Shown: one piece after another, positions 1-49,512 of the stretch
How positions within the stretch are numbered: the first letter of the stretch is position 1
Layout: each line of letters begins with the position of its first letter
The notes under the pieces: model-generated
Seen by the model: the letters and a program-made list of their open reading frames with translations, nothing else
The model's database searches: none
Told to the model about the DNA's origin: nothing
Assembly: GCA_048213135.1 (NCBI GenBank)
Contig: PS015015.1
Coordinates: forward strand, 158,925 to 222,924
Direction: 5' to 3'
Length of the DNA stretch: 64,000 bases
Origin: Reclinomonas americana ATCC 50394
Lineage: Eukaryota
Program-made: the position numbers and the translations under genes

Positions 1-855
1 GACTTGTTGGTGGAGAGCGTGCTGGAGAATGCCGAGGCAGTGCGCGACTGGGTGCACTCTCGTCGCCTGCCGCCGGTGGCCGAGCTCAACGAGGGCACGT
101 ACGAAGCGATTTCGGAGGACACTCGCAACACGTACCTGTTGATTGCGTCGTCGCAGTTGCCGGGGTCCATGGAGAGGTTCTTTTTTGCGCATAGCTCGTG
201 CATCTGTTGACGTGGATTCTTACCTTCTCCTTGTTGCGCCAGTGCACGCAACCTGCTGACGGGGCCTGCGCGAGCTGATCGCAGTCGCCTGTTTGCGGTG
301 ATTGACTTTTCCAAGTACGAGCGCTTCATCGAGAGCACGCTGAGCACGTCGGCCACCGAGCTGCCCGTCATCATGCGCATCGATTTCAAGGAGAGCACCT
401 TCCAGAAGATGTCGGCCGCCTCGCGTGGCGACAATAACCTCATCTCGGAGGAGCAGCTGCACGAGTTCATTCGCCAAGCCGAGGCCGGCGACATTTCGTC
501 TTGTTGCGTGCGACTTTTGTTGGGTGTGGACGCGATCGATTCTTGTCTTCTCTCACGTCTTGCTTGTTACACCAGCGTCGTTCGGTGGTGGCGTGTTCTC
601 TGGGCTGTGGAATGCGGGCAAGAAGTTCTTGGTGCGTCACGATTCTCTTGTACCCCTCCCTCACCTGCATTTTGTTCACGCTTGTGTGTGTGTGCGCGCG
701 CGCAGATCTACATTGGCCAGAACCCGTCCGTCGGTGTCAGCATTGTGCTGGCCTACATTGCCGTCATGGGTCTCCTGGTGTACGTCTTCCGCCGCATGAG
801 CTCGGGCGACGACAAGGACGACAAGCCGGCCGTCAAGGACAAGGACAGCGACGGT

Positions 856-1100: not shown

Positions 1101-5111
<4,011 letters not shown>

Positions 5112-5870: not shown

Positions 5871-8800
5871 ATGGACGCTGAGGATACGAGTGCGGCCGAG
5901 ACAGGTCCGCTGGAAGTGCGCATTTGCTCCAAGAACTGGCGCACTCGCGCTGCTGTTGCGTCTCCACACACACACACACACACTCTCTCTCATACACGCA
6001 CATACTCTGTCATCATCACTCACTCTCTCGTGCACACAACAGGCGTTTGATGAGGTGAAAAAGGCATTTGCCATGGCCGAGGACAGTCGCGACTCGGTGT
6101 TCCGTGAGTACCAGTCGGCCATGGTGGCTGCACCACGTGATTCCAATCAAGCCGCGCAAGACAAGGGCCTCGAGGCACTGTTGGTCTTCCTCGAGCGATC
6201 AGATCTGGCTGCAGAGTTGCGCATTTGGCCACGACAACTCCCCTCTCATTCTCCCTCTCCTATCCTCCCTGTTCTTCTCCTTCTCTCTGTTCTTCTCCTT
6301 CTCCCTGTTCTTCTTCTCCTCTCTGTTCTTCTCCTCCTCACTGTTCTTCTCCTCTCTGTTCTTCTCCTGCTCCCTGTTCTTCTCCTTCTCTCTGGTCTCC
6401 TCCTCCCTCTATTTCCACCTCCCTCTCTCCTCCCTCTCCCTCTCCCTCTCCCTATCGCTGACCACCCCTCTCCATCACGACCGCCNNNNNNNNNNNNNNN
6501 NNNNNTGCCGAGCTCGAGGCGCTCTTCGAGTCGCACCCGAAGGGCTCGGCAGAGGCCACGCGCTTCAAGCAGTCGGAGCTGCTGGCGCGGCAACGTGCTG
6601 CCGAGAGCGGCGTGGTGAATACCGTGTCCGCGTCCGTGGGCAGCTCCTCCGCCGCCGGACCCTCGGGCGTGGCGCAAGTCACGATCGAGGTGGATCCACT
6701 CGAGTTTGTCGACCCGATCGACATTTTGGCCAAGGTGCCGGCGGACTTTGTCGACCGGCTGGTGCGTCTGTAGTGATTTGACGTGTCGTTTCTTCTTCCC
6801 TTCTACTCACACAAGCGCGCGCACACAGCAAGCGAAAAAGTGGTCGGACAAGAAGCAGGCACTCGACGAGTTCATTGGTCTGTCGGGTGTCCCCAAGATC
6901 GTGCCCGGCGACTTCCACGAGCTGGTCGGCGAGTTCAAGAAGCTGCTCAACGACGCCAATGTGGTGGTGGTGGCCACCGCCGCCCAGTGCATTCGCAATC
7001 TGGCCAGTGGCCTCCAGCGCGACTTCCAGCCGTACGCGCGCCCACTGGTCTCCGTCCTCATCGACAAGCTGAAGGACAAGAAGACGAATGTCGTCGACAC
7101 GTGCCGTGGAGCCCTGGAAGCCATGTTTGGCAGCCGCTCGCTCTCCCTGGCCGACTGTCTCGATGGTACGAGTCGCTGCTGCCTCCGCTGTCTCTCTCAC
7201 ACGCACTTTGCTCACCTGTGCGATAGACATTGCCGGCGGTCTGCACCACAAGACGCCGCAGGTGCACAGCGAGACGATGAAGGCACTGCACAAGTTCTTC
7301 TCTGGCGCTCGCCGCGAGGACTTCAAGGGCATTGTGAAGCCGACTGCCGCCATGTTGATGAAGGTGCTGTGCTGTGCTGTGCTGTGCGGTGCTGCCACCT
7401 GCCGATCGCATCTCACCTCGTCCATGATTCCCGTTCCCGCAGGCCACCGACGACAGTCTGGCCGAGTGCCGCGACTGGGCCTGCAACTGCATTGCATCCA
7501 TGATGCGCATACTCGGACGACCCACCGTCGAACCGCATTTGGAGGGGTGCGTGTGAGAGCTCTCTTCCCTCCGCCCCCTGTGCATGCGCTCACCGACGCA
7601 TGCATCGTGCAGGCTCGACAAGATCAAGCTCAACAAGGTCGACGAATACTTCAACCAGTCGGGCAGCGGCGGCTCGTCGAGCTCCGCTGCACCGTCGCTG
7701 TCCATCACTGTTGCGTCGGCGTCGCAACCATCGAGCCCGGCCGCCTCCAAGCCACCGTCGGCCACGAATCGTCGTGTGGTGGCCTCGGCACCGTCGTCGC
7801 CGGCCAGTGACAGCAACGGCGATGCGGAGATTGCGCCGCGTTCTCCTGCCGCGTCGTCGGCTGCCAGTGGTCGCAAGGCCTCGGTGGCTGAGTCGCCGTC
7901 TGGCGCACGTCCGCCCTCGGCCCGCCCCGCATCTGGCAAGAGTTGCGTCACATTATTTTCTTCGAGGCGGTGCGTCGCTGAGCTGCTACTCATTCTTTCC
8001 TCTCACCTGCAGTTGGCAAACGAGGCCCGCCGTCGTCATCAGCAAGCGCTGGTGCGTCATCAAGTGGCCCGCCAGCGGCTCGCAAGCCCGATCGCCCAGC
8101 TGCTGCCTCGAGCCGAGGCGGTGCATCGTCGTCGTCGGGGCCCTCGGAGCCAGTCGATGATGGTCCAGAAGTCACCGACTCGGATGCCGTGGCGGCGCTG
8201 GCCGACATTGTGCCTGCCGAAGTGCTCACCAATCTCGAGAGCAAGCAGTTCAAGGAGCGCATGCAAGGTGCCGTGTGTCGGGAGGAGCGTCATGTTTCAC
8301 TCTTGTTCAAATCATGTCGAGCTTAAGTTTTGCTTGCTTCTTGTGTCAGGCATGGAGGACTTGACAACGTTGGTTGCTGGTCTCGGCGACAACGTGGTGT
8401 CGCAATACTCGAACCACTTTGTGGCGCTGGTCGCTCGCGCTCCCGGCTTCAAGGACACGAACTTCCCGTGCCTGACCGCCAAGTTCGAGCTGGTGGCCAC
8501 GATTGCGCCGCGTTGCGCCACCATCAGCCGTCGCTCTGCGTCGACAGTGGTGTCTGGTGAGAGAATGGGATTGAGAGTGCCTGCGTACCATCGCGATCTC
8601 ACGCACTGTGTGATGCAGGTCTCGCCGACAAGATCTCCGATCCGAAGCTCAAGGGCGTTCCCGGCCGCTGCCTGATGGCGCTGTCGGAAGCTGTGACGCC
8701 GCGCTACGTGGCCGGAGTACTGCTGCGCAATGTCGATGGAGCCAAGTGCGTATGCAACTCTGTCAAGTGAGCGGAATGCCGGTGACCTCACTTTGATTTT

Positions 8801-11800
8801 GTCGCAGGAACCCCAAGGTAATTTCGTCGGCATTGGAGTGGCTCAACGAGGCGCTGGACGACTTCACGCCCGCCATGTTCGACATCCGCACCTTGATTGA
8901 CACGACCAAGAAGTGTCTCATTGAGCAGACAAACCCGGCGGTCAAGGCCGCCTGCATTGCCATTGTGGGCACGCTGCGCAAGTTGCGTCAGAGACACACA
9001 CACACTTACGTTGACGGTTACCGATGACGTGCGTGCTCATGCGAGACTCGTCGACAGGCATCTCGGTCCGCCAGTGGCCGATTTCTTTGCGGGCCTCCCT
9101 GCTGCGCAGCAGCAAGTCGTCGACCGCGAAATTGCGCGGATTGCCGAGGAGTTCCCCACGCCGCTCGCTCTGGCCGGTGAAGGACCGAAGCGATCTGTGC
9201 ATGCTCCGGGTGCGGAGAATGTGGTGCTCGGCGGAGCAGGAGGTGAGATTCCGAGCAGTGTTCGTTGCTTCGCACTGTTTGTCACTCACCTCTGACCCTT
9301 GCAGGTGACTTGCTTCCTCGCAACGATATCACGAACGAGATCAAGGCTCGCACGCTCGCCATTATTGTGGAGGAGAAGGAGAAGTGGCAAGACCGCGTGG
9401 CGGCCTTGAAGGAGATCGAGGGCATCTTCAACGCCGCCGGCAACCGCATTTGCGGCAGCATTGGCGAACTCGTGCGCTCCATCAAGCGCTGCCTCAGCGC
9501 CAAGAACCTCAATGTGGTCTCCTCGTCGCTCCAGCTACTGGCGTTGACGGTGACGGCCTACGGTCCCGACTTTGACAAGTACGTCAAGGTGGTGCTGGGT
9601 GCGACGATGCAGAAGCTGGGTGACGCCAAGACACACATTCGTGCGGCCGCTCTGGCCGTTGTGGATGCGTGCGCCGCCGAAGTGCAGTTTGACCATTTGG
9701 TACGTGGCGGGGTGAGATGAGTTTTCTGTTGTTGCACGACGGTGTGGCTGGCTGACACGGAAGGGTGATGCAGATCGCCGATGCCGCCGCCAGCTTGGCC
9801 AACGAGTCGCCAGTGTTGCGAGTCGAGCTGTGCCAGTTCTTGCTGAAGAACATGCAGGCACTGTACTCGGAGCACGTGCAGCTGGGCCCACTGGTGAAGC
9901 CAGTTATCAATCTGTTGTCGGTGCGTCACACTCTTGTCGTCGAGTCGCTAAAGATGGCGAGCTGTCGCAAATCTGTTGACAATGAGTGTGTGTGTGCGCG
10001 CACGCAGGATCGCTCCCCCGACGTGCGCCGTGTGGGCAGCGAGCTCATGGTGCCAATCATTCACCGTGTTGGCGTCGAGTCCGTCCGCCGTGCCGTGCGC
10101 GACCTGAAGACCGCCGTGCAGCAGTTGGTGTCGCCGGTGGTGGAGCGGTGTGCGTCACAGCCTGTTCCCGACGGCATCATGCTGCCGACGCACTCGGATG
10201 CCGACCACTCGGCGGCCACCCCGTCGTCGGCGTCGTCTTCGCACACATCGTCAAGCGTCACCACCACAACAACGACCACCACTACTGCGCCGACTGCGGC
10301 ACTGGGCAAGTCCACTGCCGCTGACTCGGACAAGGAGAATCGTCCAAACACAGCCGGCAGCATGTCGGCCACTGGCTCGGTGACTGCGCGTGGCAGCGGA
10401 GGCGCAGCACGTGGTGCTCGTCCGGTGAGTGTGTTCTGTTCCCTCGTGCAGTTTGTGTGTCTCTAGTTGGCCAGACCATAGACAGCGCATCGTCTCTTGC
10501 TTCTCCTATTCGCCGTCTGTCACACTCGTGTTCACATTGCTCTGTGTATGTGTGTGTATGTGTGTTTTGTGCACTTTTTGTGTTTTCCCCTTGTAATCGA
10601 CCAGATGAAGGGCCTTAACAACGTGTCCACGCAGGCTCCTGCCCGAAAGGCATCGGCACCGAACGTGGGCACGTCGGCGGCCATTGAGAAGGCGGCGGCT
10701 TTCAAGGCCAATGATCAAAAGGTGAGCGGCCGATCATCGCCGTGTGCGCCCCTGCACGGCATTCCTCCTCATGCTGGTGTTGTGCAGGAAGCACGCGCTC
10801 GCCGTGAGCGCAAGATCAAGTGGCAGTTTGAGGAGCCGCGCCCCGAGTTTGTCGGTGTGTATGTGTGCTATTTGTGCTGCCGTCAATCGTCACAAATTGC
10901 TGAATGCGAAACAACAACAACAACAACAACACAGAGATGCTGCGTGAACAACTGACCGCCTGCGTGAGCGAAGGAATTCTCGGCAAGATGATGTCGAACG
11001 ATTTCAAGCTGCACGTTGAGGCGCTGGCAGACATGCAGGCGTCGCTCACGACCCAAGCAGAGGAGGTCATCCAGTCGCTGGACGCCATTCTCAAGTGGTG
11101 CTCCCTGCGCATGTTTGACTCGAACACGACGCCGGTGATGAAGACGATTGAGTTTGTGTCGGCCCTGTTTGCCATGCTGGCACAACACCAGTTGCGTCTG
11201 CGAGGATGCGCACAACGAGCACGAAGCGGTCTTTCTTGCCTCTGACTCATTCTGTGATCGCCACGCAGATATGTGCTGTCGGAGTTCGAGAGCTACTTGT
11301 TCCTGCCGTTCTTTATCGACCGCCTCGGCTCCAACAATGCACACGTTCGCGCTGCCATGAAGGAGCTTGTCAAGGTGTGAACGCGGCACTGAGTATGTGT
11401 TAGCCGTGCACAGCATTTTGACCCATCTCTGCTCAGGTGTCGCATGACGTCTGCAACACGTTCCGTCTGTTCACCTACATCATGCGCGGATTGGAGAGCA
11501 AGAACTCCAAGACGCGTGCCGATTGCATCGAGGAGGCCACTGTCATGGCCCAGAAGTACGGTTTGGCGGGCGTGGCGCAGAATCCGGAGCGCGTCCTGCG
11601 TTCCGTCACCGCCAACCTCAAGGATCGCGACAACAACGTGCGACAAGTCACGCTTGCGTTCACCGAAATCGCCTATGCACAGCTCGGTATGTTGGACGCG
11701 CACACTTCACTCTCCCGCTGTTGTCTCTAAAACAGTGCGTGCCACCAACGCAGGCGAGGACATGTGGCGGTCGTTGAAGGCGCTGCCTGATCCACACAAG

Positions 11801-14634
11801 GCCATGATCGAGGAGCGTCTCAAGTACTCGCATGTGGTGCCGGGCTCGATGGCCAGTGGCGCACAAGCAGCACAGGCGGCCGATGAAGACACGGCTCAGT
11901 CGGGCTCGCTGTTCTCTTCCGACGACGAGGACGACGATGGCGAGGCGGAGGAGCAACCGACCCGCGGCTTTGGCGGTGCAGCTGCTCGTCTGCCGGCGGC
12001 GGCTCGCGGTTTGCCCGGCAGTGTGCTGGCGCAGCACATTCGTGCGCAGTCCACCGAGTCGCACGACTCATTCGGCAGCAGCTTGGCCGATCACGCCCCA
12101 GCTCACGTTGCCATGGGTCCGCCGGCGCCAGTGTCGTCAATGCACGCGGTGTCGCGGTCGATTGGCTCGACTCCTGTCAGCCAGTCGGGCGACGAGGTGG
12201 TGCACCCGATGGGACCACCGGTGCCGGTGATGCAGCAGCAGTCGTCGCAGCCGGCACTGCGTCGTGTCGACGAAACCCCACAAGTTCCCTCGCGCCGTGC
12301 GTTTACTCCGCAGTTTGACGAGGCACCGACTCCGCAGTTGCCGTATCGTGCAGCCAAGTGCGTCAGCATGTGTTTTGTCGTTCGTGGCAAGGTCACTTGT
12401 GCTCACCCACTGGGGTTTTATGACACAGTTTGGTGGGTCTTCGCGTGGTCGAGGAGGATCGCAGTCCGGTCGACTTGATCAGCGAGTTGATGAGCAGCAC
12501 CGACGACGACGCCGTTGTGGAGAGTCTGCGACGAGTGTGCAACAAGCTCAACTCGGAGGAGCAGTCGATCTTGCCTGTGGTGCAGCAGCTGGTCAACGCG
12601 TTGACCCTGCAGCTCCAGCGCGGATTCTCGAGCACCCGCGACTTCCCGCAGCGCATGTGCAAGTACGCGCTGAATACGCTCATGCAATTGTTCTCACGCA
12701 AGACGATTGCGGCGGCGGTCACTAGCGAGTCGCAGAGTGCCCTGGTGCACGAGCTGCTCAAGGTACTTGCGGTTTCACTGCCAATTCCTCCCGTCACTCT
12801 GTAGTCTGTCAGTCTGACCCCACGCCCTGCAGCGTCTGCTGGACCCGAATCTCACGGACCTGCCCGACGGCCAGACGCTTCTGCGCGGCCTCAACACGCT
12901 GATGCACAAGTTGTTGGAGAACAGCGACCCGAATATTTCATTCGGCACGCTGTTCGGCATCCTCAGCTCGTGCCTCAACGAGCACCTGCACACCAACGAC
13001 GGCAACGGTGACGCCGAGTCGCCGGAGAACAAGACCATCGAGTTGCTGGCCAAGTGCATTCTGCGCATGACCAAGAGCATCCGACAGACCGACCGTGGAG
13101 TCGATCTGGCGGCCATTCTCAAGCAGCTGCACGCGTTCTTTGTCGCCCACCCGCCACACACGATCAAGAACCGCTACAATGACCTGCCGATCCGCACGGC
13201 CAAGACCGTGATCAACGAGCTGGTGCGGTGTCACGGTACACGCGTTCTGGAAGTGTGCGACGGTTTGCTGGCTGCCAGCGAGCTGGAGCACTCTGACGAG
13301 GAGCCCATTATTCGCCAGTACGTCGACATGATGATCCGCAACAATGCCACTCGGCACGGCTCTGGTGGTGCGTTCGCATTCTTGTCATTATCTCTCACTA
13401 GATGGAGTGCTGACCGACGCCTGCGCTGCTCCACAGATTCGTCGGCCTCCTCATCCTCCGACCGGCCGCCATTAGCGTCTGCCGGCAGCTCCGGTAGCAT
13501 CACCGGCACCGCCGTGTCGACCATGCCGACTGCCAACGGCGATGGGCGACCAACGACGGCGCCAGCGCGCATCGACGACACTGCTGCGGCTGGTTTGCCG
13601 GCGCAGGAAGACGGGGCGACCGACGGTGACGATGCAATCTCTGCTGCGCAACAGGACGCAGGGCAGCAGAATTCGTCGCAGCCGGGCAAGGTGCTGACGC
13701 CCAACAAGCGTTTGGCTGACATTTTCCGCAAGGTCGGCAACAAGAACACCACTCGCGAGGGACTGCGTGACTTGCACGCATTCCGCCTCGACAACCCAGA
13801 CGCCAACCTCAATCCGTTCCTGGAGAAGATGTCCAAGCCCTTCCAGCAGTACATTTGGAGGAACTTGGAGAAGTTGGAGAAGGTCTCGGAGGACCGCCGC
13901 AATCGCTCGAGCATCATCGCTTCGGGTGACGGTGGTGACGTGTCGTCGCCGTCTGCCGCCGGCCCCATGCCCGCTGCATCCGCGCTGCCACCAGCACCGG
14001 GACCCGCGTCATTTACGCCATCACGCACGTTGCCGTCGAGACCGTCGACGGCGAGCGCTGCGGCCCCACCAATGCGCACATCGGCCGCCGAACTGGCCGA
14101 GATCAAGAACCGCCTCGACAGCCTGCGGCAGAACAAGCGTTGCGTGAACGCGGGAAGCACATGAAAAAATTGTTTGTCTATGCACTCACGATGCCGCGTT
14201 CTGTATGCACAGCCACGAGCCAGTCGGTGGCCCTGGATCCACCAGTGTCGTCAGTGATGGCCGCGAACGCCAATGCCAACGCGGCCAGTGCTGCTGCCTC
14301 CATTGGCTCACCGGCCGTCGATTCCAGTGCCGTGCTCGAGCGGTCGCGCCGGCTCTTGATGAAGTTGGCCGAGTCGCAGCAACACCAGCGTCCAGGCTCA
14401 ACCTCACCATCACCGGCAACGTCGGTGGCGTCGGAGGATGGAATGGGTTCGGCACCGAACTCGCGACCGTCTTCGGCACTCGGTGCCGCGTCGCCCATTC
14501 CGCGAAATCCGTCGCCAGTGTCGATGCACTCGATGGCCAGCCTGGATGAGCAGACTCCGGCGTCCCCGGACCCGACCAAGAGCAAGCCGTCGTTGGCCGA
14601 TATCAAGGCCCGACTGGCACGGTTCCGCAAGTGA
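5871..14634 (+). CDS. CKAP5: XMAP215/chTOG/Dis1 microtubule polymerase (multi-TOG)
   Basis: N-terminus LEVRICSKNWRTRAAAFDE...DSNQAAQDKGLEAL. TOG starts KKWSDKKQALD, SKQFKERMQG and EKWQDRVAALKE, plus KWQFEEPRPE, ILKWCSLRMFDSNT and GLESKNSKTRADCIEE. Ends LADIKARLARFRK-TGA. Part of TOG1 is lost in gap 6486-6505. Confidence 0.93.
6268..6410. repeat. ~18-bp pyrimidine minisatellite (ctgttcttctccttctcy) x ~8 in chTOG intron 2
   Basis: Directly visible degenerate tandem units. Confidence 0.85.
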
Positions 14635-18252: not shown

Positions 18253-20932
18253 TCACGGGGCATCAAAGTCCACGTGGCGATAGTTTGGATCCAGCACTTG
18301 AATGCGGAAACCGTTGTCCACGACACCCTTCGCGTGCTGCAAGTCCACATTGCCGGCGTTGGCCTGCAGAGAGGTCAGTAAATCAACAGTGCATGCTAGA
18401 AGCGAGTTGCACCTAAGTCTCATACCAGTTGCAGCACGGCCAAAAAGGTGCGCGCCACCTCAAATCGTGGTGGTGGTCGCTCGTCTTCGTCGCTCCGTAC
18501 CGCCTCGGCAAAACCAACACCGCGCTCTGCGAACAGGCGTCAGTCAGTCGATCGCGAGAGTACGCCGTGCGTATAAAGTGCTCGCACTCAACTCTCTGCG
18601 CCCTTGCCAGACAGTGTGCCGAGCACGCGTGAGCCGTACTGCTCAATGGCGAATGGATCGTGCGTCTCCTCCTCGTCAATCCGCTCCCGAATGTAGCGCT
18701 GCCAGCTGTTTACCCGCTGCGTCAGCTGCGTTTCCACGGCGTACTTTTCGGCCTCGGACATGTATGCGGCCTGCGACAGCCAATAAAGTGAGCACAATAG
18801 AGTGCACATTTTCCACCCGTGCACGACACGCAACGACATGCTTGCGACATAGTTGCTCGTATGTGATGCTGCCCATGTCGCCCATGTCATCGTGGCCACT
18901 TCCGTGCAATTGTTGCCATGCTCGAGCACGTCCCATCTGCCAGCAACACATTCAGATACTGTGGTCTTGCTTCCTGTTCATCTGTGTGCACACACGCACC
19001 GACTGCGATCCTGCCTCGTCCATCTGGAATTCGGCATCCCAGTCCTCAAATCCCGACGCTCCCCCACTCTGCTTCTCCAAATCGCCCGCGGCCGCGCCTG
19101 CTGCCTTCTCACCCCAGTACACCTCTGCTGCATCCATATCACCACCGCCACCACCATAGTCGTAATCGTCCACGTCGTCGTACTCATCGTCGTCGTCAAA
19201 GTCGGACTGCGCCACAATCACACCAAATGGATTGACGCCAGCATTCTCCTTGCCACCCTGTTTTTTGTCCCACGTCATAAGCACTGGCGACAAACATATG
19301 CACGCTGGAGAAGTGAACAAAACCTGGACGATTCGCATCTGTGGTCGCCGAAGCTGCTTCCACGCCGTATTCCTCCGCTTCCGTTCCCTCGTCCACCACT
19401 CGGTCGGCAAATTCAGCACCTGGGAAAATGCGGGTGAGCTTGCGCGGCGCACGAACGAGAAAGACTGTCGTGCGAGTGCGCAACATTGGAATACAACGGG
19501 AGGCCCTTGCCCGAATTGCTGGTGACACTCATCACCGCCGCATGGGCCTTTTGCAGCTCACGCAGTGGGTTCACGTTGACGGCGGAGATGCCCACAATCG
19601 ACGCCACAGCAATCGCCGGTGTTACAGTGGGAATTCGTGTGGTGCTCTTCTTGCCCAGTGGCTTCTCCGGCAGCGCCCCATCCTCCAAGCTATCACACAA
19701 CACCACTTCGTCAGTGACTCAGCGCGTGCATCGTCGCTCTACAAACACACACACCTGTGCGGATCCAGTGGAGCCAGCACATCGATTTGCTCCTCCTCTG
19801 GCTCCTGCTTCCACGGCACCTCCATCATGGCCGGCATCTGCGCCAGCACTGGTGCACCGCCCGCTCGCTCGTCCACCTGGCTGGATGGCAACGCGGCATC
19901 CTCCTCTGCGAAACCGGCTTCCGGATAGTGATCGTCGTCGTCGTCGTCGTCATGATCGGGATAGTCGTCATCGTCGTCGTCGCTGCCGTCACGCGCCGCC
20001 GCCATTTCACCGGGCGCCACCGGTCGTGGCACGTTGCCGAGAAGTCGCGGGAAGAAGAGACCCATATCCGAAGGGTCGATCAGCAGCGCACCGCTCTCGT
20101 GCATGGTTGACGAGCGCACGCGCAGTCCATTCGAACCCGGGGACAAACTGCCGCCCGCATCGTTGCCCTGCGTGTGGTGATCAGCTCATGCGCGGGTCAT
20201 AGCACCCAGTCACCACACGCCTTCACCTCTCGCAAAATTGCCACAGAGCTCGGTGTCACACTCCCAATGCCAGCCTCCGACGCCGTGCGCTTGCGTGACG
20301 CCAAGATCGATGAAGCGCGAAGACTAATGGCCGCGTCGGTGCTCACTGGAATGTCGTCCAGTGGCAGAAACGCTACCTCGCCTGCGTGCGCAAGTTCGGC
20401 GTCATCCGCCTCGTCGGCCTCTCCTTCTCCATCACCACCTTTTCGCTGCCTGCTCGTATGCGAATGAGGGCGAGAGGTGATCTACATAACAACACAAAAA
20501 GACACTCACCGCTGATTGACCAAGAAGCTGAGCGTGCGGTTGACCAGCTGGTACAACGACTCGATCTTCTTCGAGAGCGCCAGTGTGGAGCCCTGAATGA
20601 GCAGAGCGGCTGCGCGAAATGCATCATCAACATCATCATCATCAACACACGGTATCCCTCTCTCTCGCACACACACCTTCCGCAAAGTTGATCTTTGTCA
20701 GTCCACCATCGAACGACACCACCACATGAGACAGCTCCTCGAGGTACTCCTCGAGTTGTGCGGCCACGTCGACCTTCCACGAGTCGGCCAACTCACTGAC
20801 GATGTGATCGAATGAGTGATCGATGAGAGATCTCACTCCCAACCACCAACACACTCACCGCAGTGGTTTGAGCAGCTCGGCAAACCGATGCTGCTGGCTC
20901 TGCTGTGATGAGGAGCCACCTTCGTCGTCCAT
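18253..20932 (-). CDS. NCAPH2: Condensin II kleisin subunit CAP-H2
   Basis: N-domain [50 protein letters not shown]-domain [41 protein letters not shown]. Confidence 0.92.
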
Positions 20933-21020: not shown

Positions 21021-23246
21021 ATGTCTGAGGCAGCCGCTGCGACCGACGGAGATGGGGGCAGTCGCGGACCGCGGCATGCACCCATCAAAGAGCTGATTCA
21101 GCGACGATGGTCACAGCGTCGACAGAAGCGGCAGAGTGATTTTCTGCTGCGCCAAGAATCGGTTCCGTGTGCAGCTGGCCCCTCTCTCCCTCTCCCTCCT
21201 CTCTCTCTCTCTCTTTCTGTTGTGATCTCACATCCTTCGTTCTTTGTGTGAATGAACAGCTGCGTGCAGCCAAGCTGGCCACTCTGCGACTGGATTACGG
21301 GTCGGAGTCGGAGGCTGAGAATGACGACGACGACGACGACGACGACGATCGTGGAGGCGCGGGGCGTCGTCGCGGAGGAGGTTTCGTGTGGCATTCTATC
21401 CTCTGATCCTCATCCGTCCTCTCATCAGTGGTCTCCCTCCCGCAGGTCGTCGCCGAGGTGGTGGTGGAGGTGGAGGGCGGCGACACGCCAAGGTCTGCAT
21501 GCGGTGCCATGTGTTGTCTCGCTTGTTTGTCTCACGTTGAGAGGGATGCAGGCCGCGGAAGAGGAGGGATGGATGGAGGTCGCTGCGGAGGCAGAGGCGG
21601 AGGAGGAGGCTGAGGCACCGCCTCGGGCTCGTCGTCGTGATCGGGAGCCCTTCATGTTGCCCGAGTGGCTCATCACGCCGCCGTCGGACCTGTGCAGCAG
21701 CCTGTCGTGGTTTGTGCTAATGCGACCCGAGGGGACTCGTTGTTTTGTCACTGCGCGAGGTGGACGCACCGTGTCGCGCAAGAAAGACGGTGCGCGCGCG
21801 CGTGTGTCAGTCAGACTGGGGATGTTGCTTGTGGGGGTGACTGACATGTCCCCCCTCTAGGTCGTGTGTTGCATCGCTTCCGGAGCAACTTGCCGGGTGG
21901 TGGGGGCGGTCCGATACCGCTGCCTGGCCGACCGCTGCCACTCAATCTCCAGTCGCTGCGCTTCTCGTCGTCGCCGACGGTTCTCGACTGTGTCTTTTGT
22001 CCGCACACCAATCAGTATCTGGTGCTCGATGTGTTGACGTGGCGCGGCATGGAGGTGCACCAGTCGCCCTGTCAGTTCCGTTTTGCGTGGATGCAGAGTC
22101 ACTTGGAGGATTTTTGGGCCGAGAATGCGACGGGAATGCCGCCGCCGACTACGGGTGTCGACGTGCAGTCGCCACCGAGTCGCCGCTCCCGTCGTCCGAC
22201 CATCACCTACTTTCCGGTCACACTCTTGCCACGCGCAGTCGCCACACCCGAGTCGGTGACCATGGGTTGCGTGATCTCGCTGCAATCTGTATGAACCCGC
22301 ATCGTCACCAACAAATGCTGACGCTGTTGTCGTGCAGCCTACACGGAGCAAGACTGTGGCTTTGTCAAGGACGGCCTGCTCTTCTACCACCGCTATGGCG
22401 TGTACACCGACGGCACCTCTCCACTGGTGCTGCTGTGGAAGGATCCGGCCACGTGCAGCTACTTTGACTCGGTTCGCCAGTCGCCGATTGTTGCGTTCGC
22501 ATTGGCTGCTTAGTTCATCTCCCTATCCCGTTCCACTCACGAACTCGTTACACGGGAGCAGGAGGCGCGTCTGCAGATTGATGCCGACCTGCTGTTGGTG
22601 ACGGGCGACCACCCGCCGGTTCCAGTGGTGCAGCTGACTGCCGAGCAATGTCCACAGTTGGCCACGCACGTTTATGAGCAAGAACAGATGCGCACGATGC
22701 AGCTCGGTGGGCGGGCGAGGCGGCGAAAGCCCAAGCCAGTGGAGCCTGGAGTGTTTTTGCGAGTCGGTATCGATGCAGCACTGGTGGCCGAGGCGGCGAC
22801 AGCCATGGGCGCAACCGCAGGCGATGCACCACCGGCGGCATGCATCGCTGCCGAGGCTCTCGTGTACGACAGCATACCGCAGGACCAAAAGTCGTTCCCC
22901 GACAGGTACGCCTCGTCACCACCGCGCACAAGGGGAGTGAGACGTATTCTCTCTCCCTCCTTGAACTAACACTTTCTTCGGGTGCAGCTGGAGCAAGATT
23001 GTGTTCCAGGCCATTTGCTGTGCGGGCGAAACAATACCCATTGACGAACTGGTCGCCTGCGTGGAGGCTCCACCACCGGAAGACGAGGTGGAGTGCGGCG
23101 CTCTCGCGCCGTCATGGATCGAGGCAGGGGATGCCGACGCAGGAGCGGCAGAAGAAGAATCATCGCAGATGGTGGTGAGCGGTGCCTCTGCGGCCGCTCC
23201 CCTCGACGACTACGGAGCCGGCAGTGGCTCGTGGGGTCCTACCTGA
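21021..23246 (+). CDS. SNUPN: Snurportin-1 (m3G-cap snRNP import adaptor)
   Basis: Arg-rich IBB-like N-terminus. Motifs FMLPEWL..P.G.RC..FRSNLPGG, TVLDCVF..YLVLDVLTWRG..QFRFAW and DGLLFYH..Y..GTSPL. Confidence 0.9.
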
Positions 23247-28884: not shown

Positions 28885-31713
28885 ATGCTTCCCAACGCGC
28901 GGGTAAAGCAGCTGCGACAGGCGATCAGCGAGCTGCTGGACTCGCGAGGTACACGCTCACAGTGCCACATAGGAGATCGCTTCTTTCGCTCACTCTCTCT
29001 CTTACAAAAGGTCTGTGGGATCCACTGCGCGATCTGATCGTGCGTCACGCGCCTGCGATTCTCGGCACACCGCCGCTCGCTGGTGCCGAGGCCGTCAGTG
29101 CATCGCCGTTGACTGAGAAGGGTGCGGTGTGAGTGGGGGCAAGCGATGAGGTGATCGGTCACTGATCGTAAACGCAGAGGTGTTGGAGCGAGTGATTGGA
29201 TCGTTGCAGACCGAGACGCAGTGGTTGACGCGACAGTGGCCCAGTGATGTGTCGCGGCAGCCGGAGGACGCCGAAGTACATGCTGCTGCTGCTCGTTGCG
29301 CTGAGCGATTGACGCTTCGTCGTCGTATGTGTTCTCACGATCGTATGTGTGGGGCGACGCAGCGTACGTGGCGGCTCGGGCGGGCACTGCTGGCGTGCTG
29401 AGTGGCGGACCGCTGGCGCCCCCGCAGAGCCCCAATGCGTGGTACTTGCATTTCCGGCTGGAGGGCGGCTGTGCGTTTGTCGATCTGCTGGCGGCGCAGG
29501 GTGATTCGGGATCGACCACACCCGATCAGTTTGTGCTCAGCGTGCAGTGCGGTGACACGGGTGAGCACACGATCGTGGAGGCGGTGCCGTTGGATGTGGA
29601 GCCGGCGTTCGCCGGGCACCTGGTGTTCCAGGTGCCCACGGTGGGACTGACGCCGCCGACAGCCGATGCATTGATCCAGAGGCCACGCGAGTTGTACTTG
29701 GTGCTGTTGCGACGGTCGGGTCGCTCTGGTCGCCTCTCGTTTGCGGCGTGTGCGCGGTACGACTGGCGCAAGGTATGCATGGCTAAGAGGGAGGTGACGA
29801 ATCGGTGTTCGTGCGTTGAGCTGAACGGCATGACATGCAGGTGGCGTGTGGTGGTTCGGTGCGAGTGGCGATTGAGTTGTCGCAGTCGTATGGTGTGATC
29901 AATGCACGACTGGAGGCGCTCCCTCAAGCGCTGCCGTCGTACATTTCAGCCGATGTGTTGCACCAAAAGGTGACGAGTGCTGCGGCAAGAGGGTGGTTTG
30001 CTGGCACTGATTATCTTCTGTGCATGCAGATGGTGGACGAGGCCGACGCCATGGCAGCAGTCGAGGCCGAGGTACGCGCCTACGCCGCGCAGTGGGTACG
30101 CGAGTTTCGCCAGACGCGATCCGAGAATGCGGTTTGTGTTGCTTGCTACGTGGGTGATGATCTTTGTTGAGACTGACACACGCGAGCGACAGTCGCGCTC
30201 CATGCGTTTCTTCGCCACTAACGAGGCCGGCGAACACCGACCACTGATCGCGTTTGTGAATCCACTACAGGCCGATCGGTGCGCGACGAATGAATGTGTG
30301 CTGCCAGTCTCTCCTCTTGTCGCTAATCTCGTGATTTCTGCAGTATGCTGGACTCGCCTCAGCATGCGGCTCGATTCGTGAGTCTCATTCCGTTTGAGCG
30401 AGAGGACGCAGCAGCGGGCGACGACGGCAGTATGGATGTGTGGCACTCGCTGCAGACGTTCTTGTGTCGGAAGCGAGGTCAGTGTGTTCGCGTGCACAGC
30501 CCCACATCCGTCCGCGGCACTCACATTGCGGTCGCAGGCGGCGTGGACTCGCATGCACTGCTGTTGTGCTCGCTGCTGCTGGGATTCGGGCTGGACGCCT
30601 ACTGCTGTGTGGGCACCGTTGCTGGTGGGCGGCGGCACACTTGGGTGCTCACGCGCGCCAGCAACGGTCGCATCACCATGTGGGAGAGCCTGACGGGTGT
30701 GCGGTATCCGCTGGGCACGTCGCAGCACAATTTTGAGGATGTCTTTGTGCGTCATACCTTGCTTCCGCTCGTCACCACACCGACAGCGTGTTGACATTCG
30801 ATGTTCTGCGTGCAGACTTTGTTCAATCACGCGGTGATCTTGGCCAACATTCAGCCGCGCACTGTTGCGTACGCACACCGTGTCCTTGCATTCATCCGTG
30901 TGACCGACGCTCGGGCACAGTTGGTGAGCGAGTTGGACTGGGACCTGTACAACGAGGCGGCATGGAAGCGCACAAATGCCGATCTAATGTCTCGTGTGCG
31001 CCACGAGCCACTGGTGCGACTGCGAGCGTCGACGCTGGATGTGGCGCAAGAGGAGCGCGTGTTGGAGACGGAACTGCGCAAGTCGATCGGCGACTATCGC
31101 GATCAGGAGGGGGTGCGATCCATTATAACTCGCCCGGCGTCGGTGCTGCGCTGCTGACATACGCTGCGTGTTGTCTCGGCAGTTGTCGGTGGTGTGGGAC
31201 GACAGCCTGTCATACATGTTGGCTCCGGCCCTGGTCAGCTACGAGGCCGAGCTGACCCTGCAGCACCCCTCTGCCGCCCCGCTGCTCGGATCCGCCGACT
31301 TTGCCGAGGCGCTCACACACTCGGTGCCACAGCACCACGCGTTCAAGGTGCGGTGTACACGCCGCACAATCACAACCATCAAGAAGAAAGAAAGCGCTCA
31401 CCCGCATGGACACAGGGCTACCCAACCGTCTCGCAACACCGTTCTGCCGCACGCATCCTCGCCTCCATGCTGAAGAACGACGCATGCAGCGCCATCCTCA
31501 ACACCACGGGCGACACAGTGCGCTTTGCGCTGCGCTGCAAAGTCTTCCCCTATCCCGACGACACGTTGCGTCCGTCGAACACCTCCGCGCAGTCTCCCCC
31601 CCTCGCCTCACCGAGACACACGCCCGCACTACAGAGTGGCCGTATGGACCATGCTGGCCGTGCGCTACCAAACGCACTCCACGAGCGCCGCAGGAGGAAG
31701 CAAGAGCATGTAA
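28885..31713 (+). CDS. CEP76: Centrosomal protein CEP76-like (C2 + transglutaminase-like)
   Basis: MLPNARVKQLRQAISELL, YLHFRLEGGCAFVD, DWRKV, HAARFVSLIPF, HALLLCSLLLGFGLDAYCCVG..H.WV..WESLTG, LFNH..ANIQ, and FALRCKVFPYPD..AVWTMLA. Confidence 0.88.
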
Positions 31714-32507: not shown

Positions 32508-34433
32508 ATGGAGAACGCCGTCGCGTGGTTGTGGTCGTCGCTGCAGTACCAGTTCGAGCACCACCCTGTGCACTTGGGTTGCGTAACTACCACCACCACC
32601 TACACACGCACACACAGCGCAAGCAAACAAGCAAGAATGTGTGAGAAGAGAGAGGCGCGCTGCAACTCACTCTCTCACTGTCACAGTGCTGGAGTTCCTC
32701 TTTGTGACGTTTATCCTGTACCTGCTGCCACAACGCTCGTTCCGCCCCTCGACAAAGAACCCCGATCAGCTCACCAAGGAGGTAATCCGCGCGCGCGCAC
32801 ACGTGTTTGTGCAACATGTCGTTCGTGATCACTCACACACGTGTCACACACACAAAGGAACGCGATGAGCTGATTGACTTGTGGGAACCCAAACCACTCA
32901 TCCCGCACGATGAGCGCGTGCAAAAGTTCGACATGAAGGTCGTCGAAGGGTGAGTGATCACTCCTCTGTTGAGTCGAGTCTCTCTCGCCAGTGATTGACT
33001 GCTGTCTTGTGGTTGTAAAGGAGCTGCGGTGAGCGTGTTGTGGTCAACGGGAAGCACGCTGTCAACTTTGCCTCGTACAACTTCCTCGGCTTCCTCGGCG
33101 ACGAGGACATTAACCGTGCGTGCACGACTGCGTTGCACACGTATGGCGTCGGAGCGTGCGGACCGCGCGGCTTTTACGGCACCATTGGTCAGTGTCCCCT
33201 GTGCGCGTGCCTCTCTATACCTGTCTCTTACCTTGTGAGTTGGCGATCAGATGTGCATCTGCGACAGGAGCAGCTGCTGGCGCGTTTCATGGGCACGCAG
33301 GAGGCGATTCTGTACTCGTACGATTTCGCCACCATCTCCAGTGTGATTCCGGCGTTCTTGAAGCGCGATGATGTGATTGTCGTCGACGAGTGTGCCAATC
33401 ATGCGGTGAAGACAGGCGCGATGCTGTCGCGCTCGCGTGTGCTGTTCTTCCGCCACAACGACATGCAGCATCTGGAGGAGTTGCTGAAGCAGGTGACGGC
33501 GCCCAGCAAGACCAAGAAGCCGCTCAATCGTCGGTTCATTGTGGTCGAGGGACTGTACCAGAACTCGGGTGGTGCGTGTGCACAGCTGCAGGGGAGAAAA
33601 GGAGCGATCTGACTGAGGAGTGCCTGCGCAGATTTGTGCCCGCTGCCCGACATTGTGCGTCTGAAGAACAAGTACAAGTTCCGCCTGGCCATGGACGACT
33701 CGTTTGGCATCGGCACTCTCGGTCGCACCGGCCGCGGCACGTGCGAGCACTTTGGCATTGACGTGGAGGAGGTGGACATTATCACTGGTTCGCTGTCGAA
33801 TTCGTTTGCCGCAGTGGGCGGCTTTTGCGTCGGCAGCCACGTGGTTTGCGATCATCAGGTTTGTTGTCTGTTTGTTTTTGTGTCTCCTCGATGCGTCGCT
33901 TCGTGATTGCTAACTGTGGGGTCGCAGCGTCTGTCTGGCACCGGCTACGTGTTCTCTGCAGCGCTGCCGCCGTACCTGTCGGCCGCCGGCATTGCGGCGA
34001 TGAACAAGCTGATTGACCGACCAGAGAGCGTGCAGCAGCTGGAGAGTTGCGACGACCCTTGCCCGTGCCTTTTGGGTCTCCATTCGTCTCAACCCGCGTG
34101 GGATGTACAGAGAACACACAGACGCTGCGTGAGGAGCTGGCCAACCTGGAGGAGCACGGTCTGGTGGTGTCGGGCGATGCCAACTCGCCGCTGATCCACC
34201 TGCGACTGAAGCGATCACGCGGCTCACGCGACGCCGACTACGACCTGCTGGAGACATTCGTGTCCAAGGCACTGGACCGAGGAATCGCACTGACGACGGC
34301 CAAGTACACGCCACTGGAGAGCCACCCACCGCCACCGAGCATCCGCATGTGCGTGTCGGTGAAGCACACGCCGAATGACTTGTCGGAGGCCGCCAACGTC
34401 GTCAAGCAGCTGGCCCGCGAATTGGTCGCATAG
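32508..34433 (+). CDS. SPTLC1: Serine palmitoyltransferase subunit 1 (LCB1)
   Basis: N-terminal TM, DELIDLWEPKPL, NFASYNFLG, YGVGACGPRGFYGTIDVH, FIVVEGLYQNSG and HQRLSGTGYVFSAALPP. GSLSNS has Asn in place of the PLP-binding Lys, as expected for LCB1. Confidence 0.95.
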
Positions 34434-39075: not shown

Positions 39076-42000
39076 ATGGGCGATGCTGTGCTGCTGAATG
39101 GGCCACATGGCGACCTCTTTCGGTACTCTCACATACAGAGAAGACGCGCGCTCTCTCTCTTGCACACGCTCACTTCCTTTCAGGTCCACACATGAACTGG
39201 AAAAGCAACTGGCCACACTGTGTCGCACACATCGCGGCTCCTATGTCTCCCGCGAGGCCACTGCCATTCGCGAGAGGTGTGTGTGTGTGTGTCTCTTTTT
39301 GACTCTCTTGCCAGTGCTGATTTGTGTCGCAGCATTCGCGGGAATTATGAAATGATCATCTGTGAGGACCACGAGTTGGCCTACCAACGCGACTTGGTCG
39401 TCAACCTGTGGCGTTTGGTGTATTACAAGCCCATTGAGGAGTTCCGCCGTCGCTTCAAAGAGGTGTCATTTTGCCCGCCTTTTTTTCCTCTCTCCTTTTC
39501 CTCTCTGACACTATCGACAAGGTGACAACGGCGGATCAGAAGGGGCAGCTCACACTGGAGTTCATGGCGTTTCTCGACGAGGCCAAGGCCTTCTTCATGC
39601 TCCTGGTGCAAAAGTTGGAGCTGCAGGCCAAGAGTTGCGCTGTTCGTTGAGCATTATTTCAACCGCGTGTGTTCTCATTGTGTGTGTTTGCCGCCAGCGC
39701 TGAGCAATCGGGAAAAGCCGCACGTGTACTTTGTCGTGCACAAGTGCTTGGTGTTCCTCGGAGACTTGGAGCGGTACAAGCAGAATTACTCGGCCGAGGT
39801 GGAGAAGGACTGGCGTGAGGCCACGCACTGTTACCTGCGTGCGCATGCCATGGCTCCGTGCAGTGGTGCGTTTGCAACTGGGTTGGAGCGTGCGTGGCCG
39901 GCGACAGTGCTGACGTGTGTGTGTGTGGCGGTGCAGGGAGTCCGCAGAACCAGCTCGCCGTGTTGGCGACCTACCGCAACGACGACTTGGAGGCTATTTA
40001 TCGCTACTTTCGCGCTCTGATGGTGGAGAAGCCGTTTCTCAACGCGCGAGAGAACCTGCTGACGCTGTTTGAGAAGAACCGCTTGCGCCTGCTCGAGTTG
40101 GAAGCGTTGCTGACCCCGAAACGCAAGGTGGCGTGGTGGCAGTGAAGCACATTTGTTCTTCTCATTCTCATCCGCTCGCTGTCGCAGGATCGACGCTCCA
40201 AGCAGCAGCCGCGTCGAGGCGCAGGTGCGCCGTCGCTATCGGCTTCGGGTGGGTCATCGTCGTCGGCATCATCGTCGCTGCGCGATTCACTGTCCGGATC
40301 GTCGTCGGCCACTCCTGGCGGGCCGTCGTCGACTCCTGGAGGCGACACCCACGCCGGCTCCTCGTCCGCATCGCTCTCGTCGCCGTCGGCCGAGGACTTC
40401 CGCTTGTTCATCACACGCTTCATTCGTTGCCACGGCGTCCTGTTCACCAAGACGAGCGCCGAGACGTTCCACGACGTGGAGCAACAGGCCATGCGTGCAC
40501 TGACGGCGTTCATGAAGGCCAACTCGTTGGAGGGCGACCTGTTCACCATGCTGGTGCTGATGAATGCATTCTCGGTGCACAATCTCGACTATGCTCCCGG
40601 TGAGTCGCGGAGTGGAGGAGCGGCTGTGAACGAACGTACTCGGTCTCATCTCAGTACAGAGCACTACACGATGACGGATGTGGATCGGCGCAAGAAGAAT
40701 GACCTGACCGAGTACGCGTTGGTTCTGTTCTACGATACGCTGCGCAAGGTGAGTGCGCAGAGCATCCCGTCATCGGTTCGAACGCTGCGCTCACGTGGTA
40801 GTGGCGATGCAGGCGTTTGAGAACATCTTCTTTGCCAATGTCACCACATTCCTGGTCGGTGCGATGTTGGGAACTGCCTGGTTGGCGCAACACTTGACCT
40901 CGGCTCTAGCCGACTTGCCGCCTCGGGAGAAGGAGGTTCGTGACACTCGTGGGGTGTTTTTTCCGTTTGTGTGCATGACAAGGGTGTGTTTGTGCGTGAT
41001 GCAGGCGCGTGCGCGTAAATCGCTGTGGATGTGCATCGCCAAGGCGCTCTCTGTGTTGCACTCGCGGCACCCACATCTGACAGTCTTGGCGGAGGGTGCG
41101 CTCTGCTTGTTGATTCGTCGCGAGCCGACACACTCGCACATGCTCACCATTTCCACTTTCCACAGAATCCGGCCTCTTCGTGGCCGGTCCCGAGGACTAC
41201 GATCTGCAAGGCTGCACTCCGTTTCGCGCCCTCGTCGGCGACGCCGGTGTGTGTGTGTCTCCCCACTGTCTACCTACCTGTCGTTTTGCTGAAACGCATG
41301 TGTGTCAAAACGCAGATGTTGCCGGAGCCAAGGACGGTGAAGACGATGAACGCCTGCAGCATCGGCGGCGGCGAGTGGTGGCGGTTTCGGATGCCAATGA
41401 AGACGAGGAGGACGAATTGGAGATGGCGCGCCTGGCGCGACTGTGGAAGTACGCCACAGAGGTGGCCGAGGAGCACCCGGTGAGTGTCTCTCTCTCACAA
41501 TGGCTTCACCTATCCACTCACACGCATACGCACGCAGGACTTTGCCGAGGAGGCTGCGGCTCGTGGCGTTCCTCTCGGCCGTGGTCACATTGGCACCGTG
41601 TCGGCCGCCATGCCACCCCCCCAACCGGTCGTGCGCATGGCCAATGGACATGCTGGTCCCTCTGTGGCGGCTGCTCGGCCAGCACCGTCGCCAATGGTGC
41701 ACGACGCCGACGACAGTGAAGCCATGATGGTTGATGTCGCGGCTCACCGCCCTGCCGACGCCGGTACGTCACCCACCACTGTGCGCCTGTCAAGTATATT
41801 TTCATTCATCTTTGTGTTGTGCAGACATGAGCTCTCTTCCTGCTGCTGCTGCTGCTGCTGCCGCCGCTGGGGGCGCATCCAGCTTCACGCACGCCGATGA
41901 CGATGACGACTACCTTCACAGTCACCAGGTCAGTGCTGCTGCTGGCGCGCCGTCGTCCAGTCTGCGCGCACGCCGTCCGATTGACAGCGACGACGAGGAC

Positions 42001-48861: not shown

Positions 48862-48933
48862 GGGCCGTTCTGGGAATTGAACCCAGGACCTCACCGACCC
48901 GAACGGCGAATCATACCACTAGACCAAACGGCC
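48862..48933 (-). tRNA. tRNA-Pro(CGG), identical second copy
   Basis: Exact reverse complement of 48376-48447, with its own T-runs downstream. Confidence 0.93.

Positions 48934-49477: not shown

Positions 49478-49512
<35 letters not shown>

Follow-up and report, generated by a model that had tools for sequence, protein, structure and literature searches.

A second class of predicted splice donors, with an extra T and mostly without the exon-end G, in a 64-kb window of Reclinomonas americana nuclear DNA

The splice donors predicted in a 64-kilobase (kb) stretch of nuclear DNA from Reclinomonas americana ATCC 50394 (GenBank contig PS015015.1; hereinafter the window, meaning the whole stretch analyzed, in whose coordinates all positions are given) fall into two forms that differ in the base with which the preceding exon ends. 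Ordinary donors follow the consensus G/GTGCGT (the slash marks the exon-intron border), whereas a second class, amounting to about 24–25% of the predicted introns, carries an additional T after the initial GT (GTTG[CAT]G; hereinafter extra-T donors) and seldom follows G. In a cleaned set with paralogs counted once, G occupies the last exon position (-1) in 3 of 28 extra-T introns versus 75 of 87 ordinary ones (p=3e-13). This 2x2 comparison on predicted introns confirms that, in the window, the donor class and the exon end are associated far beyond chance, as a preliminary description of the sequence had proposed; the four exceptions it had named, with G before GTT (22266, 32578, 51841, and 55372), all exist. 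We favor, with a probability of roughly 0.5, the reading that extra-T donors are recognized one base further into the intron than ordinary donors and are nevertheless cleaved before GT, with U1 as the likely reader and U6 presumably tolerating the extra base. The window itself is intron-rich, has a G+C (GC) content of ~57% and contains 13 assembly gaps; its predicted introns are short, with a median of 67–70 nucleotides (nt).

Introns were called with our own dynamic-programming gene finder, whose donor score is computed from intron bases only and is thus blind to the exon-end base. Two runs, one with hand-set weights and the other with trained matrices, gave 186 and 183 introns, 128 of them identical, on strands backed by Pfam matches or coding score; a version of the program without a donor model performed poorly. 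As the trained matrices gave too much weight to GTGTGT and yielded tiny exons, only introns common to both runs were used. Among these 128, G stands at -1 in 3/32 GTTG[CAT]G donors versus 79/96 ordinary donors (p=1e-13). Comparison with homologs exposed a false call at 8512 (the real donor being 8557), a misplacement at 43920 (true donor gag/GTGCTG), a call at 2535 that should read caag/GTTTGT at 2550, and a wrong acceptor at 11687. Six doubtful rows (8512, 43920, 4486, 47809, 61163, and 49832) were removed on account of such homolog-exposed errors, of donors within (GT)n runs (three cases) or of an intron of 42 nt (one case), together with seven paralog duplicates (54656, 54902, 55149, 53864, 53957, 54121, and 54749). 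The ordinary rows dropped in this cleaning were all non-G, so that the contrast became slightly wider; it is already present in the raw table. With strict motifs, G precedes 3/23 GTTG[CA]GT donors versus 23/28 GTG[CA]GT donors (p=8e-7). The three independent extra-T cases with G (22266, 32578, and 55372 together with 51841, its equivalent position in a tandem paralog pair) all read tgg/GTTGCGT.

The same pattern emerges from counts of motifs over the gene intervals, made without an intron model. GTTGCGT occurs 36 times in sense versus 3 times in antisense orientation, with sense:antisense ratios of 9:0 after A, 10:1 after C, 13:1 after T, and 4:1 after G. GTGCGT is strand-enriched only after G (24:3, versus 38:39 after A, C, or T); the corresponding ratios for GTGAGT are 17:5 after G and 13:26 after the other bases, and GTTGAGT stands at 6:0, every occurrence following a non-G base. 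In ten genes whose strand is fixed by Pfam matches, GTTG[CA]GT is found 23:0, and if all sense occurrences in these genes are considered, 2/23 GTTG[CA]GT versus 29/64 GTG[CA]GT follow G (p=0.002). The coding strand is thus marked by G/GTGCGT in one class and by non-G/GTTGCGT in the other. We also considered active avoidance of G at the -1 position of extra-T donors and rejected it: codon position predicts 34%, and the observed 3/28 is lower (p=0.004), but the general baseline is low. Occurrences of GTGCG follow G in 14–16% of cases on both strands, although antisense GTTGCG does so in 10/30. Separately, GTGCGT outside predicted donors is seldom preceded by G (3/34 sense, 3/42 antisense), a scarcity that may be compositional or may in part reflect avoidance of cryptic donors.

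The gene in which the pattern had been described, encoding a chTOG/XMAP215-type protein, was curated against homologs. It presents 24 visible donors, 18 ordinary and 6 extra-T, with G preceding 0/6 of the latter versus 16/18 of the former (Fisher p=2.1e-4). Every detail previously given for this gene proved correct: all six GTTGCG donors follow a non-G base, and the ordinary donors follow G except for AA/GTGCG on two occasions (caa/GTGCGT at 8746 and 12358). Once spliced, the sequence between 6507 and the stop codon at 14634 forms an open frame of 2144 codons. An N run at 6486–6505 interrupts the gene and takes with it the 3′ end of the intron that starts at 6216, leaving both ends visible for 5/6 extra-T introns. 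A long CT-rich, low-complexity tract of repeated units at 6223–6485 (+) fills this intron up to the gap, and most of the first TOG domain appears to be missing at the tract and gap (6223–6505).

The reading frame cannot decide where extra-T introns are cut, because a slide of 3 nt (GTT/GCG, giving a GC-AG intron) keeps the frame; the spliced products were accordingly compared with full-length homologs by alignment. At seven extra-T junctions the alignment has neither gap nor insertion, namely at 45625 and 44792 in the coatomer beta gene (COPB1), 4305 and 2331 in the GH31 glucosidase gene, and 5955, 8982, and 11191 in chTOG, and the alignments show these predicted introns to be cleaved at N/GT. 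GC-AG introns at GTT/GCG would add one codon, which is absent at all seven, and were rejected. A slide of both borders by one base was also rejected: the ends become non-GT or non-AG, and the junction residues fit less well, with L in place of F at 2331 and V in place of L at 4305, residues that are absent from or rarer in the homologs. The remaining 21/28 junctions are supported by frame and splice signals; in 26/28 cases a retained intron would disrupt the frame or introduce a stop. Loose support comes from Pfam coordinates on 12 exons flanking extra-T introns, where the CEP76_C match ends at an exon end and those of Rer1 and EST1 begin at an exon start. These observations bear on the notion that the class is an artefact of calls made by eye or by the gene finder, or that true cleavage lies elsewhere, whether at GTT/GC or with both borders slid. 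The introns are predictions, a 3-nt slide is frame-neutral and the gene finder made several errors; yet its donor score sees the intron alone, the raw strand counts agree, and the seven homolog-exact junctions carry no extra codon. Such an artefact is highly improbable.

As to the anatomy of the two forms, the ordinary consensus has G at +3 in 71% of donors, C, T, or A at +4 in 49%, 30%, and 16%, G at +5 in 89%, and T at +6 in 64%. After the T of the extra-T donors the same spectrum follows one step later (G, then C/A/T, G, and T), GTTG[C/A/T]GT mirroring GTG[C/A/T]GT. The previously noted superposition of N/GTTGCG on G/GTGCG by a slide of one base, with the +1 G in the role of the -1 G, holds: a single position separates GUUGCGU from GGUGCGU, and the bases preferred at +4 to +7 are those of +3 to +6 in ordinary donors. 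The extra base is always T. GTAGCGT (2:0 sense:antisense) and GTCGCGT (7:6) provide no donor and GTGGCGT (13:7) provides one, so that these three motifs show no strand enrichment and yield a single donor in 22 sense occurrences; a need for +3 to pair in the manner of the ordinary +2 U would predict this restriction to T. When T stands at +3 in the normal register (GTTCGT, GTTTGT, and similar), the -1 G is kept in 9/10 cases, and loss of the preference is confined to donors that regain the consensus on sliding by one base (GTT, then G[CAT]GT). The tandem paralogs share six positions at which each copy has an extra-T donor, differences between the copies being limited to the variable base. The class is also stricter, C occupying the variable position in 36/49 of its donors versus 24/61 ordinary ones (p=5e-4), which fits a helix short of one pair. 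Two further donors are of note in this context. At 40128 (+), both runs called caag/GTGGCGTG, which can be made to match the consensus solely by taking a G as the extra base and which retains the -1 G; it has the form that a true bulged site would take, and is a single case. At 45997 (-), in COPB1, the homolog-supported donor aca/GTTTCGG follows a non-G exon end and may be the extra-T form of a GTTCG-type donor, in which event the class would be wider than GTTG[CAT]G.

In all other respects the two classes of introns are alike. The 28 extra-T introns are all GT...AG, with 27 CAG acceptors and one AAG; both classes have a branch motif (CTCAC/CTGAC/CTCAT) whose median distance from the exon is 21 nt; and length (70 versus 67 nt for ordinary introns), GC content and use of CAG are comparable. 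The agreement in branch motif, acceptor, length, and GC content indicates that one spliceosome serves both donor classes. We considered U12-type introns, whose donors are long and rigid (RTATCCTT type), and rejected them in view of GTTGCGT. By the signals that they carry, extra-T introns are ordinary U2-type GT-AG introns with an offset donor and not a mobile family. Introner-like elements do occur in some protists and algae, and the donor octamer is uniform enough to recall a single inserted family that brought its donor along, the -1 base then being part of the insertion target. However, a comparison of 115 intron interiors returned just 3 matches, all short and of low complexity, in no case with both partners extra-T introns, and the class is present in 13/17 genes with the length, branch site, and acceptor of other introns; a mobile origin is accordingly extremely improbable.

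We propose that both forms present a common heptamer, G-[G/U]-U-G-C-G-U, which in N/GUUGCGU would lie one base deeper in the intron. The intron +1 G would occupy the slot usually held by the exon -1 G, +2 U would be mismatched against the base with which +1 G usually pairs, and the positions from +3 U through +7 U would act as +2 to +6 ordinarily do. Cleavage would still fall 5′ of GU and would hence be fixed by something besides pairing of the heptamer, an arrangement known from the shifted U1 register of humans. The 5′ end of the U1 small nuclear RNA (snRNA) would be the reader, with U6 tolerating the extra base. As the last exon base would lie outside the recognized heptamer, it would be under no requirement to be G; that it is thereby "freed for coding", as had been suggested, describes a consequence. 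Five independent features are most simply accounted for by a one-base offset of the recognized heptamer that leaves cleavage at GU, a reading that is partly supported. Likelihoods of the exon ends of the 28 extra-T introns reject the unshifted model by 42 units (log-likelihood -158.9, versus -116.6 for background and -119.1 for the shifted model), and at -1 alone the shifted model is the best (-39.3 versus -43.2 for the codon-position background). The -1 position of extra-T donors does not differ from the -2 position of ordinary donors in A (10/28 versus 39/87), in G (3/28 versus 12/87), or in purines (13/28).

Several points weigh against this reading. Every intron is a prediction, all are drawn from one 64-kb window, and homologs revealed the gene-finder errors at 43920, 8512, 2535, and the 11687 acceptor. 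Across -1 to -3 the shifted model is no better than the codon-position background; as it gains nothing at -2 and -3, pairing upstream of the +1 G would be weak or absent. T at -1 of extra-T donors exceeds that at -2 of ordinary donors (9/28 versus 12/87; p=0.046), and where A and C would be expected at -1 and -2 through pairing with U10 and G11 of U1, we find A 10, T 9, C 6, and G 3 at -1 and C in 6/28 at -2. Pairing energies are also equivocal. With the textbook U1 5′ end as printed in PMC4856993, and not this organism's own U1, ordinary sites reach -7.4 kcal/mol with the -1 G and -2.4 without it, while extra-T sites with a non-G exon end stand at 0.0 kcal/mol in every register. (The ordinary consensus itself matches this 5′ end poorly at +3/+4, which prompts one to ask whether U1 has co-evolved with the donors.) For a hypothetical U1 matched to GUGCGU through its positions 5 and 6, non-G extra-T sites favor the shifted over the bulged register narrowly (-6.2 to -7.5 versus -5.4), and a -1 G would give the most stable complex, a bulged one (-10.1). 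By duplex stability alone G should thus be favored at the -1 position of extra-T donors, where it is rare. An ordinary site lacking the -1 G still reaches -10.3 with the same U1. Taken together, the energies imply that no single U1 explains by duplex stability alone both the need of ordinary donors for G and the indifference of extra-T donors to it. Either the -1 G serves another step, such as the contact with U5 loop 1 argued for in PMC11732430, or bulged complexes are unproductive, or there is a second reader. The earlier claim of recognition shifted by +1 with cleavage before GT is therefore upheld in part: the seven homolog-exact N/GT junctions, the offset consensus, the restriction to T, and the loss of the -1 G speak for it, while textbook U1 pairs stably in no register and -1/-2 give no clear pairing signal.

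If one U1 paired normally with +1 G and +2 U, a single U could bulge and pairing resume at +4 G. The two adjacent U's would make the position of the bulge degenerate, and with the hypothetical matched U1 such a register trails the shifted one by just 0.8–2.1 kcal/mol where the exon end is non-G and ranks first where -1 is G; in humans, bulged registers, including a bulge at +2/+3, are documented (PMC4856993; PMC9311317). The -1 base would, however, still face C9, so that G should stay favored, against the 3/28 versus 75/87 seen here, and a bulge at +3 should accept other bases than the T that is exclusively found. We consider bulging unlikely.

Another candidate is a dedicated variant U1, or another trans-acting reader, that would match GUUGCGU perfectly, for example through a C-to-A change at position 8 that would render the shifted register Watson-Crick. 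Such a C8A U1 is modelled to bind extra-T sites at -10.3 to -11.8 kcal/mol whatever the -1 base (A being the best), and is the only modelled case in which G gains nothing; the large size and uniformity of the class (GTTGCGT in 36/49) point the same way. The variant is nevertheless purely hypothetical, and an Rfam scan of the window recovered two tRNAs and no snRNA, hence no U1 gene in the 64 kb. Precedents run in both directions: altered U1 5′ ends match odd donors in Entamoeba and Mastigamoeba, whereas Thecamonas and Mamiellales, which likewise have C at +4, retain a standard U1 (bioRxiv 10.1101/2022.06.08.495308). On balance a variant reader strikes us as improbable. The fuller model, in which two donor-reader pairs would operate within one major spliceosome, a standard-type U1 on G/GUGCGU and a second U1 on GUUGCGU, seems equally doubtful, and we know of no organism with two U1 types for two donor classes. 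Were it true, the second U1 would differ at the base that usually meets +1 G, serve about one quarter of the introns, and remove the need for an exon-end G.

A more general explanation is the ordinary compensation between exon and intron sides of a donor (the "seesaw" of AG//GUNNN versus NN//GURAG), by which a strong intron side dispenses with the exon G. In animals and plants generally, -1 G and +5 G are anticorrelated (PMC11732430), extra-T donors do hold the stricter intron consensus, and ordinary donors have a slightly higher share of -1 G the weaker their intron side (32/41, 24/29, and 13/14, i.e., from 78% to 93%). Against this, in the strict-motif comparison given above, full-consensus GTG[CA]GT keeps its -1 G, and the jump tracks the extra T rather than the strength of the intron side, so that compensation is very unlikely to account for the class. 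The one-base offset remains our preferred reading.

The donors and the chTOG gene are collected in Table 1. Genes were placed by Pfam matches to single exons: besides the GH31 glucosidase (-, ~1.1–5.5 kb), chTOG/XMAP215 (+, 5871–14634), and COPB1 (-, 43.6–47.4 kb), we recovered snurportin, CEP76, aminotransferase, EST1/SMG6-like, pseudouridine synthase, Rer1, and C2CD5-like genes. The best relatives of COPB1 in the protein collection are only ~45–53% identical, with no close relative there; a COPB1 exon searched against metagenomes found one contig, 52% identical and of transcript length, and so uninformative on introns. A C-terminal chTOG exon as homolog query gave no match. In GH31, at 3660–3892 (-), about ten conserved residues (the PPYWSLGFHL region of homologs) were recovered by neither run, and one or more very small exons probably lie between donor 3892 and the exon preceding donor 3605. 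Two tandem paralogous genes (49144–51767 and 52784–56032, +), with no function assigned and no Pfam match on the exons tried, have many tiny exons (11–126 nt); the 45 nt upstream of six common donors are 82–100% identical between them, and about one third of their predicted introns are extra-T (5/14 and 5/15 concordant introns). The pseudouridine synthase gene is separated from the first of these paralogs by an interval containing two tRNA-Pro(CGG) genes at 48376–48447 (+) and 48862–48933 (-), inverted, ~415 base pairs apart, and both scoring 53.3 bits against Rfam.

Table 1. The chTOG/XMAP215-type gene, extra-T donors of the window and the two ordinary chTOG donors with a non-G exon end (lower case, exon; upper case, intron; intron lengths in nt).
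Feature	Position	Strand	Donor	Gene	Intron and remarks
Gene, five TOG	5871..14634	+		chTOG/XMAP215-type	Pfam TOG on exons, open spliced frame, homolog alignments
Extra-T donor	5955..5961	+	gct/GTTGCGT	chTOG	5955-6042, 88 nt, phase 0; no indel vs XMAP215 homologs
Extra-T donor candidate	6216..6222	+	aga/GTTGCGC	chTOG	3′ end inside gap 6486-6505
Extra-T donor	7942..7948	+	aga/GTTGCGT	chTOG	7942-8012, 71 nt, phase 1, low-complexity linker; frame only
Extra-T donor	8982..8988	+	caa/GTTGCGT	chTOG	8982-9057, 76 nt, phase 2; no indel vs 8 displayed homologs
Extra-T donor	11191..11197	+	cca/GTTGCGT	chTOG	11191-11268, 78 nt, phase 2; no indel vs most displayed homologs
Extra-T donor	14139..14145	+	agc/GTTGCGT	chTOG	14139-14212, 74 nt, phase 1; frame only
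Ordinary donor, non-G exon end	8746..8751	+	caa/GTGCGT	chTOG	first exception
Ordinary donor, non-G exon end	12358..12363	+	caa/GTGCGT	chTOG	second exception
Extra-T donor	503..509	+	ctt/GTTGCGT		73 nt
Extra-T donor	2325..2331	-	ttt/GTTGCGT	GH31	65 nt, phase 0; homolog alignment exact, junction F fits
Extra-T donor	4299..4305	-	atc/GTTGCGT	GH31	68 nt, phase 1; alignment exact; codon CTG=L fits homolog NLYG
Extra-T donor	18586..18592	-	aga/GTTGAGT		66 nt; A at variable position
Possible extra-T donor	19478..19484	-	aat/GTTGCGC		227 nt, poor acceptor; least certain row retained
Extra-T donor after G	22266..22272	+	tgg/GTTGCGT	snurportin	72 nt
Extra-T donor	22490..22496	+	att/GTTGCGT	snurportin	72 nt
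Extra-T donor	29295..29301	+	ctc/GTTGCGC	CEP76	68 nt
Extra-T donor	30864..30870	+	act/GTTGCGT	CEP76	57 nt; in frame, stop-free if retained
Extra-T donor	31565..31571	+	cac/GTTGCGT	CEP76	70 nt; upstream exon end = CEP76_C profile position 127/140
Extra-T donor after G	32578..32584	+	tgg/GTTGCGT	aminotransferase	109 nt
Extra-T donor	34046..34052	+	aga/GTTGCGA	aminotransferase	65 nt
Extra-T donor	39634..39640	+	aga/GTTGCGC	EST1/SMG6-like	64 nt
Extra-T donor	44786..44792	-	gca/GTTGCGT	COPB1	58 nt, phase 1; no indel vs 15 homologs
Extra-T donor	45619..45625	-	gga/GTTGCGT	COPB1	76 nt, phase 0; spacing identical to most of 15 homologs
Extra-T donor	50689..50695	+	cct/GTTGCGT	tandem paralog 1	partner 54268
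Extra-T donor	50931..50937	+	gaa/GTTGCGT	tandem paralog 1	partner 54487 gaa/GTTGTGT
Extra-T donor	51111..51117	+	atc/GTTGCGT	tandem paralog 1	partner 54656
Extra-T donor	51358..51364	+	cga/GTTGAGT	tandem paralog 1	partner 54902 tga/GTTGCGT
Extra-T donor	51605..51611	+	atc/GTTGTGT	tandem paralog 1	partner 55149 atc/GTTGCGT
Extra-T donor after G	51841..51847	+	tgg/GTTGCGT	tandem paralog 1	intron enters N run 51869-51888; partner 55372
Extra-T donor	54268..54274	+	ctt/GTTGCGT	tandem paralog 2	called by one of two gene-finder runs
Extra-T donor	54487..54493	+	gaa/GTTGTGT	tandem paralog 2	called by one run
Extra-T donor	54656..54662	+	atc/GTTGCGT	tandem paralog 2	
Extra-T donor	54902..54908	+	tga/GTTGCGT	tandem paralog 2	
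Extra-T donor	55149..55155	+	atc/GTTGCGT	tandem paralog 2	
Extra-T donor after G	55372..55378	+	tgg/GTTGCGT	tandem paralog 2	phase 0, last codon TGG
Extra-T donor	55662..55668	+	tct/GTTGCGT	tandem paralog 2	
Extra-T donor	56513..56519	+	gct/GTTGCGT		66 nt
Extra-T donor	59254..59260	-	ctt/GTTGCGT	Rer1	first intron, 164 nt; downstream exon start = Rer1 profile position 3

Shifted-register 5′ splice sites are rare in humans, where recognition of this kind is an exception that took suppressor-U1 genetics to demonstrate. What would be new here, as far as predicted introns go, is a shifted-type donor as a major class, shifted recognition itself being already known from humans. A full-text literature search, with supplements (which may hold donor tables) outside its scope, did not find GTTGCGT or GUUGCGU as a splice donor. 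If the whole genome uses the shift for about one in four introns, it would offer a natural system for studying the choice of cleavage site under offset U1 pairing, and would also allow one to ask how U6 handles an extra base beside the catalytic GU and whether the exon-end G serves U1, U5, or neither. On the practical side, donor models built on a single position matrix will miss or misplace extra-T introns in this organism, as did our own trained matrix.

Several known systems invite comparison. The main donor of the window, GTGCGT(G) with C at +4, resembles the GTGCGT(G)-type donors of Ostreococcus (Irimia and Roy, 2008; PMC2483917) and those with C at +4 in other Mamiellales, Thecamonas, and Mastigamoeba, of which the first two have a standard U1 and the third a changed one (Roy and Bowser, 2022; bioRxiv 10.1101/2022.06.08.495308); the window, however, is far more intron-rich than any of these, and the available portions of the sources do not describe the GTTGCGT form for them. 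Like the seesaw classes of Parker, Fica and Simpson (2025; PMC11732430), the donors of the window form two separable classes, with and without an exon-end G; but the former differ in which side is matched, within a single register, whereas here the classes are offset by one base, and ordinary donors retain the -1 G together with a full intron consensus. With the bulged U1 registers (PMC4856993; PMC9311317) they share one extra nucleotide between GU and the rest of the consensus, but bulged sites keep the pair between -1 and C9, while here the -1 G is lost (3/28) and T is the only extra base. The closest parallel lies in the shifted register defined by Tan et al. (2016; PMC4856993, citing Roca and Krainer, 2009), in which the helix is slid by one position, cleavage remains at GU, an extra U is present, and the -1 G is dispensable. 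Human sites of this kind have exon ends that mimic CA before G, whereas the exons here have no clear CA end (A in 10/28 at -1, C in 6/28 at -2); and, unlike those rare sites, the donors described here share one fixed heptamer and make up about a quarter of the predicted introns.

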